DNA of 64,000 bases from the NCBI GenBank assembly GCA_903847385.1, contig CAINDO010000440.1, forward strand, positions 6,129 through 70,128. Reading direction: 5' to 3'. The translations under genes were made by a program, and so were the position numbers. A model generated the notes under the pieces. It was given only the letters and a program-made list of their open reading frames with translations, was not told where the DNA came from and did no database searches. Source of the DNA: an uncultured Myxococcales bacterium. Its GTDB lineage: Bacteria > Myxococcota_A > Bradymonadia > UBA7976 > UBA1532. Below, piece after piece: positions 27,924 to 28,928 of this stretch (the stretch's first letter is position 1; each line of letters begins with the position of its first letter).

Positions 27924-28928
27924 ATGAACCATCTGGGTGTCCACTGGACGTCCGAGCTGTACGGGTGCGACCCGCAGCTCCTCGACGATGTCGCCCACAT
28001 CGGCAACCTGATGCTCGAAGCCGCCCGCGTGGCCGGCGCGACCATCGTCTCGAGCAGCTTCCACCGCTTCGCGCCCCAGGGCGTGTCCGGCGTGGTCGTC
28101 ATCGCCGAGTCGCACCTGGCCATCCACACCTGGCCCGAGCTGGGCTACGTGGCGCTGGACGTCTTCACCTGCGGGGACGTCCTCCAGGCCGAGGTCGGCT
28201 TCCGCTGGCTCGCCGAGCGGTTCCACGCCACGCGAGTGGAGTCGCAGCGCCAGGTGCGCGGTGATCCGCGCCGCATCGAGACCTTCCGCCACCATCACAC
28301 CTACACGCCGCTCCACCCGGAACTCTTCCGCTACGACGCCGACTTCGCCGCGCGATTCGTCTCGGTGAGCGAGGTCGAGGAGCTCGCCGAGCAGGTGTAC
28401 CTTTTCCAGCTCTTCACGCCGGAGTTCTGCCGGCTCCTCATCGAGGAGTGCGAGCACCACGCCGGGTGGGTCACCGTGCTCGAGCCGACGCCGGCGGCGC
28501 ACTCCGCCGTCGACGGCGTCGAGGACACCTACGAGCCGGACACCACGCTCACGTGGGAGGCCCTGCCCGGCCTCGAGGCCGTCTACAAAGAGGTCATCAA
28601 ACGCCACGTGCGGCCCATCGTCGAGCGCCTGTGGCCCACCTGGACGCTGCAGAAGTGGGACCCGCCGGCCACGCGCCGCTACGAGCCCAACGTGGTCGCC
28701 GGCATGGCCCTGCACAACGACGCCGAGGCCGTGGCGATGGTCGGTTACCTGAACGCGGAGTTCGCCGGCGGCGGCACCTACTTCCCACGGTGGGAGCTCA
28801 CCGTCGGACACGCGGAGATGGTGCGGGTCGGCAGCATGGTCGTCTTCCCCGGGGGTGTGTCGCACGAGCACGCCGCGCGGCCCGTCACGGCCGGGCGTCG
28901 ATACACGCTGGCCAACTCGTTCTATTGA
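27924..28928 (+). CDS. speH: Small-type (SpeH-like, pyruvoyl) S-adenosylmethionine decarboxylase fused to a C-terminal 2-oxoglutarate/Fe(II) oxygenase (P4H-like) domain
   Basis: N-terminal 125 aa: [16 protein letters not shown]...[48 protein letters not shown]. This matches bacterial and archaeal class-1b AdoMetDC, including the ESH autocleavage site and HTWPE. The C-terminal domain has HxD (LHNDAE), GGGTYFPRW and a distal HEH..R-x-Y-T motif. Confidence 0.75.
   Translation: [334 protein letters not shown]

Follow-up and report, generated by a model that had tools for sequence, protein, structure and literature searches.

The 64,000-nucleotide stretch of DNA analyzed here (the window) carries a forward-strand gene in which a class 1b pyruvoyl S-adenosylmethionine decarboxylase (AdoMetDC; SpeD/SpeH) is joined in frame to a lysyl-hydroxylase-like 2OG/Fe(II) oxygenase. 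The product is probably a bifunctional enzyme that supplies decarboxylated S-adenosylmethionine (dcSAM) and hydroxylates a carbon of an aminopropyl or aminobutyl unit, which would provide a dedicated route to hydroxylated, probably branched or extended polyamines. The link between this oxygenase and bacterial polyamines is a reading from homology and gene association. The gene is the first of an apparent operon that also encodes BpsA, an MFS-like membrane protein, a stand-alone oxygenase paralogue, SpeE-type enzymes with three to four domains in all, and a GNAT-like protein.

Architecture of the fusion gene

The gene and its parts are as follows.

27924..28928, +, fusion gene, AdoMetDC plus lysyl-hydroxylase-like 2OG/Fe(II) oxygenase, 334 aa
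27924..28262, +, class 1b pyruvoyl AdoMetDC (SpeD/SpeH) domain, residues 1-113
28107-28112, +, predicted self-processing site between Glu62 and Ser63
28125-28127, +, SpeD-domain His68
28170-28172, +, SpeD-domain Cys83
28263..28295, +, linker, ~residues 114-124, varying in length and sequence among orthologs
28296..28925, +, 2OG/Fe(II) oxygenase domain, residues 125-334
28713-28715, +, Fe ligand His264
28719-28721, +, Fe ligand Asp266
28869-28871, +, Fe ligand His316
28899-28901, +, 2OG-binding Arg326

Translation gives one uninterrupted frame of 334 residues, preceded by a Shine-Dalgarno-like GAGGA 6 nt 5' of the ATG. The in-frame fusion claimed in the initial annotation was borne out, with no stop or frameshift between the halves. 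Pfam recognizes AdoMet_dc at residues 7-113 (E 1.4e-38) and the OGFOD2-like family PF25238 at residues 125-184 (E 1.5e-8; 35.1 bits versus a gathering score of 31), and a match to 2OG-FeII_Oxy_3 at residues 266-331 (E 1.5e-4; 23.1 bits) falls below its gathering score of 27. The predicted structure of the whole protein (pLDDT 92.6, pTM 0.72) is least confident in the linker (pLDDT 74-77), where alignment of the orthologs shows insertions of up to ~30 residues and 7-65% identity.

Three independent assemblies (ERZ27313454, ERZ18649448, and ERZ1426765) encode an identical fusion protein with the same neighbors, and it is also present in JGI and NCBI. A database search of the kind that the initial annotation had proposed recovered the same two-domain architecture in ~20 cluster representatives (45-96% identity), although the fusion is rare, with 21 matches at E<=1e-30 among 1.84 billion representatives. 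When genome contigs were scanned with the whole fusion as the query, no full-length fusion was found among the best 80 loci, which were dominated by stand-alone SpeD genes. The fusion is a genuine gene architecture. That adjacent genes were merged through assembly or sequencing error has a negligible probability: one or more single-base homopolymer errors or variants do lie nearby (27133-27139), but the open reading frame is identical in independent assemblies, shows no internal start or Shine-Dalgarno signal, and keeps its architecture across relatives with different linkers.

We found no published description of a SpeD-oxygenase fusion in the searchable literature, and in the part of that literature dealing with SpeD fusions we found no mention of an oxygenase as partner. 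The earlier remark that no described decarboxylase-oxygenase fusion was known therefore stands for this protein but not for the concept, which has an analogous, nonhomologous precedent in PavA of pavettamine biosynthesis, which joins a Rieske domain with a PLP decarboxylase (bioRxiv 10.64898/2026.06.12.731819). Both systems combine a decarboxylase-oxygenase fusion with a small dedicated operon and, in our reading, bacterial polyamine C-hydroxylation. They differ on the oxygenase side (a Rieske [2Fe-2S] enzyme versus a 2OG/Fe double-stranded beta-helix), on the decarboxylase side (a PLP alanine-racemase fold versus a pyruvoyl AdoMetDC), and in the origin of the polyamine backbone.

Catalytic features of the two halves

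The SpeD half bears the AdoMetDC motifs described previously (AESH at 61 and FTCG at 81) and scores well above threshold against both PF02675 (132 bits, cutoff 25, E 1.4e-38) and the TIGR03330 equivalog model (135.8 bits, cutoff 75.65). It aligns one to one and without gaps with the Thermotoga maritima AdoMetDC 1tlu (E 5e-32), and E62, S63, H68, and C83 are all present in this alignment; its central region is nearly identical to that of the validated T. maritima enzyme. In AdoMetDC, processing and catalysis depend on S63, H68, and C83 (PMC10407285). The same source reports no sequence signature separating arginine decarboxylase (ADC)-type proteins from AdoMetDC, and a signature alone cannot formally distinguish the SpeD half from neofunctionalized arginine-decarboxylase SpeD homologs.

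Compared with T. maritima TM0655 (PDB 1tlu/1vr7), the window SpeD carries a 210-residue oxygenase on the C terminus of the future alpha chain. The closest homologs of this half are SpeD-SpeE and SpeD-BpsA fusions. Known SpeD fusions include SpeD-aminopropyltransferase (in “Candidatus Pelagibacter,” Pontibacter/Rufibacter, and diatoms), SpeD-BpsA, and SpeD-SpeD, and the window SpeD half is 50-57% identical to them. They share with the window protein an N-terminal class 1b SpeD, a dcSAM-supply module (a predicted one in the window protein), joined to another polyamine-pathway enzyme, but their partner is a transferase or a second decarboxylase, whereas here it is an oxygenase. Catalytically dead SpeD domains have been kept in some members of both groups.

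Structure prediction found the two folds anticipated in the initial annotation, an AdoMetDC fold in the SpeD half (TM 0.91) and a double-stranded beta-helix (DSBH) in the oxygenase half. The closest structural relatives of the latter are lysyl hydroxylase (LH)-type catalytic domains. In a phmmer alignment, H264, D266, and H316 coincide with the Fe ligands of LH3, in agreement with the iron-binding role given to this half, and R326 (H316+10) aligns with the Arg of “GTRY” in LH3, the 2OG-binding position. The motifs LHNDAE at 263, GGGTYFPRW at 282, SHEH at 313, and GRRY at 324 lie where they had been placed, and His314 is invariant across the oxygenase family. The prolyl-4-hydroxylase-like label, on the other hand, needs revision: prolyl 4-hydroxylase (P4H) and PHD matches are far weaker than matches to lysyl hydroxylases (PLOD/L230), and the domain is best called lysyl-hydroxylase-like and OGFOD2-like. 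Prolyl 4-hydroxylases have in common with it the DSBH superfamily and the HxD...H...basic-residue spacing, and the HAAxPVxxGxR pattern recalls the P4H C-terminal motif.

Even with the lysyl hydroxylases the likeness is partial. The collagen lysyl hydroxylases (the LH domain of human LH3/PLOD3 and mimivirus L230) are 22-25% identical to the window oxygenase and carry glycosyltransferase and accessory domains, whereas the window protein consists of only the ~210-aa catalytic domain and, unlike them, is bacterial, joined to SpeD, and encoded within a polyamine operon. This operon context argues against hydroxylation of peptidyl lysine in the X-Lys-Gly repeats of collagen, and collagen is very probably not the substrate. 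As for OGFOD2, the N-terminal part of the domain passes the Pfam threshold for PF25238, and membership in this family is functionally uninformative, as we found no established substrate for human OGFOD2 in the searchable literature.

The oxygenase family comprises ~130 cluster representatives; some Balamuthia members carry a wrong PLOD1 annotation, and the family is represented in protist transcriptomes. The Fe facial triad is conserved in 14 of 20 fusions and in all stand-alone members (10/10). Its loss from the other six fusions, and the loss of SpeD catalytic residues from 2 of 20, indicates that the two activities are separable and that the fusion is not obligatory; in the latter pair (P0018 and P0021) the SpeD fold is retained though catalytically dead.

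The apparent polyamine operon and its relatives

The genes around the fusion are listed below.

26939..27888, +, GNAT-like protein, first gene of the window-specific block, weak Pfam GNAT_LYC1-like match
28946..30001, +, BpsA-type aminopropyltransferase, homolog of N4-bis(aminopropyl)spermidine synthase, PF01861 E 2.9e-66
29995..31284, +, membrane protein, MFS-like, putative transporter
31293..31919, +, stand-alone paralogous oxygenase (“B-type”), 208 aa, PF25238 E 9.6e-10
31934..33508, +, tandem SpeE-like protein, 524 aa, two Pfam Spermine_synth stretches (one SpeE domain E 6.9e-29) and PDB matches
33505..34383, +, SpeE-type aminopropyltransferase, 292 aa, Pfam E 7.6e-35
34380..35306, +, second GNAT-like protein, 308 aa, last gene of the apparent operon, weak Acetyltransf_1 match

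All genes from 27924 to 35306 are codirectional and either overlap or are separated by gaps of <=17 nt, so that AdoMetDC and aminopropyltransferase genes stand tightly spaced in one direction, and the same set recurs in relatives. The window BpsA matches the Thermococcus kodakarensis BpsA 5xnc (E 9.4e-47) and has orthologs in L083, L086, and L088. The SpeE-type protein at 33505..34383 has canonical GGGDG and D-x-T-D motifs and matches Escherichia coli SpeE 3o4f (E 1.3e-46) but stays under the NCBIfam equivalog cutoff (224 versus 260 bits). In the tandem protein, the N-terminal domain has canonical motifs, and the C-terminal domain retains GGGDG but is missing the catalytic Asp motifs. The stand-alone oxygenase, which the initial annotation had rightly recognized as a paralogue, is encoded by the third gene after the fusion; it shares 52% identity with the fused domain over 210 aa and 78% with its L086 ortholog, and its H-x-D...H...R set is intact. 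The MFS-like protein gave no Pfam match of its own; its identity is 43% with L086:12390 and 30% (E 1e-29) with the N-terminal part of L083:17527, a protein with MFS_1/TLC matches.

Neither GNAT-like protein had a match in the PDB sequence search or NCBIfam. The second is 90% identical to L081:7664 and 53% identical to L086:16415. The first is interrupted in the window, where a G-run at ~27133-27139 has one G too many (tblastn places residues 9-61 in frame 3 but residues 67-314 in frame 1); its gene encodes 315 aa in other assemblies, the open reading frame is intact in L095 and L096, which are 99.96-99.98% identical, and an ortholog (49% identity) lies directly upstream of the L086 fusion. No starter-amine gene (ODC or ADC) is present in the window cluster, and a tblastn search of the window gave no match to an APH kinase. 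With the relatives' cluster genes as queries, tblastn returned one marginal amine-oxidase fragment, far away in the window. A search for regulatory elements that would structure the operon (riboswitch, promoter, or terminator) was negative, and the base composition of the window gave no foreign-island signal.

In every context examined (the window plus L083, L086, L088, L089, L090, L092, L093, and L094), the oxygenase family adjoins aminopropyltransferase genes. The neighbors are three SpeE genes, an amine oxidase, and BpsA in L083; a SpeD-BpsA fusion in L088; SpeE and a BpsA-APH fusion in L089; four SpeE genes in L090; a spermine-synthase-like gene in L092; BpsA in L093; and three SpeE genes in L094. 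In the eukaryote-like protein P0172, an oxygenase of the same family is independently fused to BpsA. Some related clusters (L083, L090, and L094) also hold amine oxidases of the FAD or copper type and a JmjC-like gene, which shows that oxidative polyamine tailoring belongs to these pathways. Alkaline phosphatases and a CDP-alcohol phosphatidyltransferase were also seen in related clusters. The hydroxyls that APH-family kinases phosphorylate belong to small molecules of the amino-alcohol type, such as aminoglycosides, hydroxylysine, and choline or ethanolamine. The recurrence of these kinases in four relatives' loci (in L086 at 11148-12335), once fused to BpsA, favors a small-molecule substrate and suggests further chemistry on the hydroxyl.

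The near-identical genome L081, in which the flanking genes are 96-97% identical, lacks the BpsA and SpeE genes but has the second GNAT-like gene in a reduced locus. Its SpeD half is 89% identical to that of the window, and its oxygenase half is only 51% identical and has lost H264, D266, and H316. This decay where the aminopropyltransferases are gone argues that the oxygenase depends on the polyamine pathway, although a polyaminated protein substrate would still be compatible. We considered whether recombination of the fused with the stand-alone paralogue had produced the short L081 locus and rejected this origin, as the C-terminal half is 51% identical to the fused and 34% identical to the stand-alone oxygenase.

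Proposed pathway and competing readings

The initial suggestion that dcSAM supply is coupled to hydroxylation of a polyamine-pathway molecule, perhaps the aminopropyl donor, is favored by the gene-neighborhood and Rosetta-stone evidence. Judging from its conserved residues and fold, the SpeD domain would self-cleave between Glu62 and Ser63 into a ~7-kDa beta chain and a pyruvoyl-started alpha chain bearing the C-terminal oxygenase, and the processed enzyme would decarboxylate S-adenosylmethionine to dcSAM. From the operon content, the coencoded BpsA and SpeE-type enzymes would then use dcSAM to add several aminopropyls onto a starter amine. Lysyl hydroxylase homology and gene association suggest that the oxygenase would hydroxylate an unactivated methylene beside a CH2-NH3+ end, a local analogue of lysine C5 hydroxylation from which the regiochemistry is taken by analogy, yielding a 3-amino-2-hydroxypropyl (or 2-hydroxy-aminobutyl) unit. 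Either a polyamine or not yet transferred dcSAM may be the substrate, and a second, distinct hydroxylation would fall to the stand-alone paralogue. The closest characterized relatives act on protein lysines and not on free amines, which counts against this proposal, as do the missing starter-amine gene and the fusions in which one half has lost its catalytic residues. We speculate that the new hydroxyl serves as a handle, probably phosphorylated in relatives by the coclustered APH-family kinase, with possible N-acylation of the product by the GNAT-like proteins and possible export through the MFS-like protein. The handle step is unsupported in the window organism itself, as its cluster has no APH kinase.

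Among the alternatives, there is a modest chance that the fused oxygenase hydroxylates dcSAM (or AdoMet) itself, that the transferases pass on the 3-amino-2-hydroxypropyl group, and that the BpsA-paired paralogue acts on the polyamine. Gene fusions usually unite consecutive pathway steps, dcSAM is the only metabolite made by SpeD, and its aminopropyl tail (S+-CH2-CH2-CH2-NH3+) resembles the end of a lysine side chain. A division of labor would also fit the distinct, coinherited clades formed by the fused (“A-type”) and stand-alone oxygenases, the pairing of B-type genes with BpsA (adjacent in L083, L086, L089, and L093, in line with the P0172 fusion), and the divergence of the SpeE genes, which fall under equivalog cutoffs. 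The dead SpeD domains of P0018 and P0021 could bind or present a ligand, and in L088 the separate SpeD-BpsA fusion would supply dcSAM. Against this, we know of no hydroxylated dcSAM, some A-type oxygenases are unfused (P0023, P0024, and P0039), and the computed evidence fits hydroxylation after transfer equally well. Moreover, SpeD is fused to SpeE or BpsA in many genomes merely as a supply module, so a SpeD fusion need not imply an oxygenase that uses dcSAM.

A more elaborate version has only a small chance of being correct. Here the fused oxygenase would make hydroxy-dcSAM as a new sulfonium donor from which specialized BpsA and SpeE enzymes install 3-amino-2-hydroxypropyl groups, and the products would be phosphorylated by the APH kinase or phosphate-linked to lipids via the CDP-alcohol phosphatidyltransferase or a PLD-type enzyme. 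If true, this would amount to a Kennedy-like route to polyamine-headgroup molecules, common to Myxococcota, other bacteria, some protists, and a giant-virus-like genome.

The chance is slim that the enzyme hydroxylates a lysine, or a polyamine-bearing lysine, of a protein as part of a hypusine- or silaffin-like modification machine. The nearest relatives in structure and sequence are indeed protein lysyl hydroxylases, polyamine-modified lysines and phosphorylated hydroxylysine occur together in diatom silaffins, the kinase for hydroxylysine belongs to the APH family, the L090 cluster has a SET-domain gene next to it, and the protist transcripts noted above would suit such a role. However, no conserved candidate substrate protein recurs across the examined loci, the genes that consistently accompany the oxygenase encode small-molecule enzymes and a transporter, and the low identity to LH3 and L230, the missing accessory domains, and, with the caveat given above, the decay in L081 weigh in the same direction.

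Slimmer still is the chance that no stable alcohol forms, either because hydroxylation beside nitrogen leads to oxidative N-dealkylation that trims or back-converts polyamines or because the oxygenase is an O2- or 2OG-sensing regulator of the decarboxylase. 2OG oxygenases such as AlkB and JmjC commonly dealkylate amines, and the amine oxidases and JmjC-like gene of related clusters would fit, but the nearest relatives are C-hydroxylases yielding stable alcohols. The recurrent APH kinases, the alkaline phosphatases, and the CDP-alcohol phosphatidyltransferase also suit a stable hydroxyl better, and two conserved paralogues point to biosynthetic tailoring and not to regulation.

Under the preferred reading, hydroxylation of an aminopropyl or aminobutyl unit, the lysyl-hydroxylase-like 2OG/Fe(II) enzyme dedicated to an aminopropyl pathway would represent a new enzyme activity. 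The bacterial polyamine C-hydroxylases that we found described are Rieske enzymes, namely, PavA and putrescine 2-hydroxylase (Li et al. 2016, as cited in PMC11107197), and a search for 2OG polyamine hydroxylases in the searchable literature found nothing relevant. It would also point to hydroxylated, probably branched polyamines as an unrecognized class in mesophilic bacteria of soil and sediment and give a first functional foothold for a small, uncharacterized oxygenase family. As the repeated pairing with BpsA shows, branched-polyamine synthases extend beyond thermophiles. The system lends itself to direct testing, with one ~8.4-kb operon and a clear mass-shift readout, and the sister strain with its missing transferases and decayed oxygenase provides a natural negative control.

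A rare SpeD-oxygenase fusion

The ORF at 27924-28928(+) runs through 334 codons with no stop or frameshift between its halves, follows the ribosome-binding motif GAGGA, and encodes the in-frame pairing of a SpeH-type AdoMetDC (SpeD) with an oxygenase proposed in the initial annotation, whose quoted motifs are all present at their positions. Pfam recognizes domains of both kinds.

Residues 7-113: AdoMet_dc, E 1.4e-38
Residues 125-184: OGFOD2-like domain PF25238, E 1.5e-8, exceeding the gathering score
Residues 266-331: 2OG-FeII_Oxy_3, E 1.5e-4, under the gathering score

Aligned with the Thermotoga maritima AdoMetDC structure 1tlu, the N-terminal half matches position by position without gaps (E 5e-32); it passes the NCBIfam AdoMetDC equivalog cutoff (135.8 versus 75.65 bits), and retains Glu62-Ser63, His68, and Cys83, which correspond to the processing and catalytic residues defined by the Michael laboratory (PMC10407285). 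In a phmmer alignment to the collagen lysyl hydroxylase LH3, His264-x-Asp266 of the C-terminal half matches HxD, His316 the distal His of “HYH,” and Arg326 the Arg of “GTRY,” so the predicted Fe and 2OG ligands are all present. On sequence and structure, one chain thus carries two halves that look catalytically competent, a pyruvoyl AdoMetDC and an Fe/2OG oxygenase, and the protein belongs to both class 1b AdoMetDC and the 2OG oxygenase superfamily. The oxygenase had been labeled prolyl-4-hydroxylase-like; the 2OG/Fe(II) assignment holds, and the qualifier is better replaced by lysyl-hydroxylase-like or OGFOD2-like. The domain resembles lysyl hydroxylases but lacks the architecture of the PLOD family (collagen lysyl hydroxylases) and almost certainly does not share their substrate, and membership in that family was rejected.

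An assembly artifact is ruled out because the identical protein, with the same neighbors, occurs on independent assemblies (99.96 to 99.98% identity to the window over 4.6 kb) and because the two-domain architecture recurs in about 20 cluster representatives (45 to 96% identity) with linkers of variable length. When 1.84 billion cluster representatives were searched exhaustively with HMMER, only 21 proteins reached E<=1e-30, only a handful of them full-length fusions. SpeD-aminopropyltransferase and SpeD-SpeD fusions are described and functional (PMC11107197, PMC10407285); as the initial annotation anticipated, we found no description of a SpeD-oxygenase fusion in the literature searched. The protein is a rare, conserved, undescribed putative bifunctional enzyme.

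Genomic context and the oxygenase family

The fusion lies among eight or nine co-directional genes (26939-35306) in tight succession: the first two are 35 nt apart, and later neighbors overlap or lie <=17 nt apart.

Gene 1, 26939-27888(+): GNAT-like protein
Gene 2, 27924-28928(+): SpeD-oxygenase fusion
Gene 3: homolog of BpsA, an aminopropyltransferase (PF01861, E 2.9e-66; T. kodakarensis N4-bis(aminopropyl)spermidine synthase, E 9.4e-47)
Gene 4: MFS-like membrane protein
Gene 5, 31293-31919(+): stand-alone oxygenase
Gene 6: tandem protein resembling the aminopropyltransferase SpeE, C-terminal domain at 32711-33505
Gene 7: SpeE (E. coli SpeE match, E 1.3e-46)
Gene 8: second GNAT-like protein

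The stand-alone oxygenase, third gene downstream, is the paralog that had been noted earlier; across 210 residues it shares 52% identity with the fused domain. The operon shows no conspicuous riboswitch, promoter, or terminator signal, and base composition is uniform. A BpsA relative with 72% identity is annotated “[Myxococcales bacterium],” which, along with a GC content of ~72% and MopE/PPC-type genes among the neighbors, points to a source within the myxobacteria. A G-run at 27133-27139 has one base more than in L095 and L096, independent assemblies otherwise 99.96 to 99.98% identical over 4.6 kb, and the 315-aa GNAT-like gene preceding the fusion is consequently split between two reading frames; an assembly error or a strain-level or phase variant is the probable source of the extra G. 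In the tandem SpeE C-terminal domain and its ortholog (L083:8347-9135), the GGGDG dcSAM-binding motif is kept and the E/D-I-D and D-x-x-D catalytic motifs are absent, suggestive of a conserved aminopropyltransferase domain that is divergent or noncatalytic. Unrelated to the fusion, 36301-38259(-) encodes a predicted lipoprotein with long Gly/Ser/Asn low-complexity repeats (GSGNGSG...) and Cys-rich ends, with an ortholog in L081 (87% identity).

Gene-neighborhood comparison revealed a similar gene set around orthologous fusions in several loci.

Gene content of related loci (fusion identity in parentheses)
L083-L085 (55%): SpeE, amine oxidase, SpeE-like, SpeE, fusion, BpsA, stand-alone oxygenase, DUF5916, APH kinase, alkaline phosphatase
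L086 (70%): tandem SpeE, GNAT-like, fusion, APH, membrane protein, SpeE, BpsA, oxygenase, GNAT-like
L088: SpeD-BpsA fusion, APH, others; then SpeD-oxygenase fusion with dead SpeD half
L089 (58%): tandem SpeE, BpsA-APH fusion, oxygenase, others; then SpeD-oxygenase fusion, alkaline phosphatase
L090 (52%): four SpeE genes, amine oxidase, MFS, fusion
L094: copper amine oxidase, JmjC-like protein, fusion, three SpeE genes
L092 (stand-alone member), 10001-11556: oxygenase directly upstream of a spermine/spermidine-synthase-like gene
L093 (stand-alone member), 411-7820: BpsA, oxygenase, MFS, CBM9/DUF5916, methyltransferase, CDP-alcohol phosphatidyltransferase

The L092 contig (859 kb, 41% GC) consists mostly of ORFans, includes HSP70 and NFACT-R, and possibly represents a giant-virus-like genome. 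A SET-domain gene (L090:1050-1814) adjoins the L090 cluster; in diatoms, long-chain-polyamine fusion proteins unite AdoMetDC with an aminopropyltransferase and a SET-type N-methyltransferase.

No more than 129 cluster representatives reached E<=1e-10 in an oxygenase-only profile search, and none of these is functionally characterized. Members occur in protist transcriptomes, including marine ones (EukProt, MMETSP), and as two paralogs (P0048 and P0338) on one 413-kb contig of Balamuthia mandrillaris, where the annotation “Procollagen-lysine,2-oxoglutarate 5-dioxygenase 1” (PLOD1) is probably a misannotation by similarity. The eukaryote-like P0172 (933 aa; cluster members to 985 aa; UniParc UPI000491545E) joins a BpsA-type domain (178-388), through an unassigned region of ~330 aa, to a C-terminal family oxygenase (722-933). 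What ties this family to aminopropyl transfer is a pair of independent fusions, one with SpeD and one with BpsA, plus gene adjacency at all loci examined. Fused (A-type) and cluster-linked stand-alone (B-type) oxygenases form separate clades in a neighbor-joining tree, indicating an old, co-inherited pair and implying two distinct roles.

Separate loss of either half

The L081 locus is from an organism very closely related to that of the window (flanking PLD and GFO/IDH proteins and a flanking 315-aa protein without assigned function, 96 to 97% identical; flanking DNA, 87 to 91%) and lacks blocks matching window positions 26833-27910 and 28472-34341. The first block corresponds to the opening GNAT-like gene; the second extends from the C-terminal half of the oxygenase domain through SpeE and includes BpsA. 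Its fusion (locus 6699-7667) has a SpeD half with 89% identity and all catalytic residues, while the oxygenase half (51%) has lost His264, Asp266, and His316. Across 20 fusions and 10 stand-alone oxygenases, both catalytic sets were kept in 12 fusions (one, P0010, with Gln at the Arg326 position), 6 kept SpeD and lost the Fe triad (oxygenase halves 34 to 57% identical, most on long branches), and 2 kept the oxygenase with a dead SpeD; all 10 stand-alone oxygenases were intact. Each half therefore appears to be an autonomous predicted catalyst under its own selection. In L081, the one case with known context, the oxygenase seems dispensable once the transferases are gone.

A putative polyamine-tailoring pathway

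We propose that the fusion marks an uncharacterized polyamine-tailoring pathway. After self-cleavage, the oxygenase would stay joined to the pyruvoyl-bearing alpha chain, and, judging from the operon, dcSAM (decarboxylated S-adenosylmethionine) from the SpeD half would feed BpsA and two to three predicted-active SpeE domains. Lysyl hydroxylase kinship and gene association suggest that the oxygenase hydroxylates the methylene beside a terminal CH2-NH3+, yielding a 3-amino-2-hydroxypropyl or 2-hydroxy-aminobutyl unit, and the second paralog may hydroxylate another site or intermediate. This supports and refines, in the lysyl-hydroxylase-like sense, the earlier suggestion that dcSAM production is coupled to hydroxylation. 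The substrate of the fused oxygenase may be the completed polyamine or, in a donor-first order, dcSAM that has yet to be used for transfer; the second is a serious rival given the fusion to SpeD and the retention of dead SpeD domains. In the literature searched, no 2OG-dependent polyamine hydroxylase and no OGFOD2 function is described, and the polyamine C-hydroxylases found belong to the Rieske class. PavA, from the pavettamine pathway, is a Rieske and PLP-decarboxylase fusion (bioRxiv 10.64898/2026.06.12.731819) and offers a functional analogy, with neither domain homologous.

APH-family kinases recur in relatives (L083:15037-15927, L086:11148-12335, L088:5939-6799), once fused to BpsA (L089:2898-4757), as do alkaline phosphatases (L083 and L089); no APH kinase homolog was found in the window. 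Together with the CDP-alcohol phosphatidyltransferase of L093, these genes suggest that relatives use the hydroxyl as an attachment point in phospho-ester chemistry, e.g., product phosphorylation, and they favor a small-molecule over a protein substrate. The L093 gene order gives a hint of phospholipids with a hydroxylated polyamine as their head group. Next to the window cluster lies a two-HKD PLD-family gene (24636-26828), but L081 has this gene as well despite lacking the cluster.
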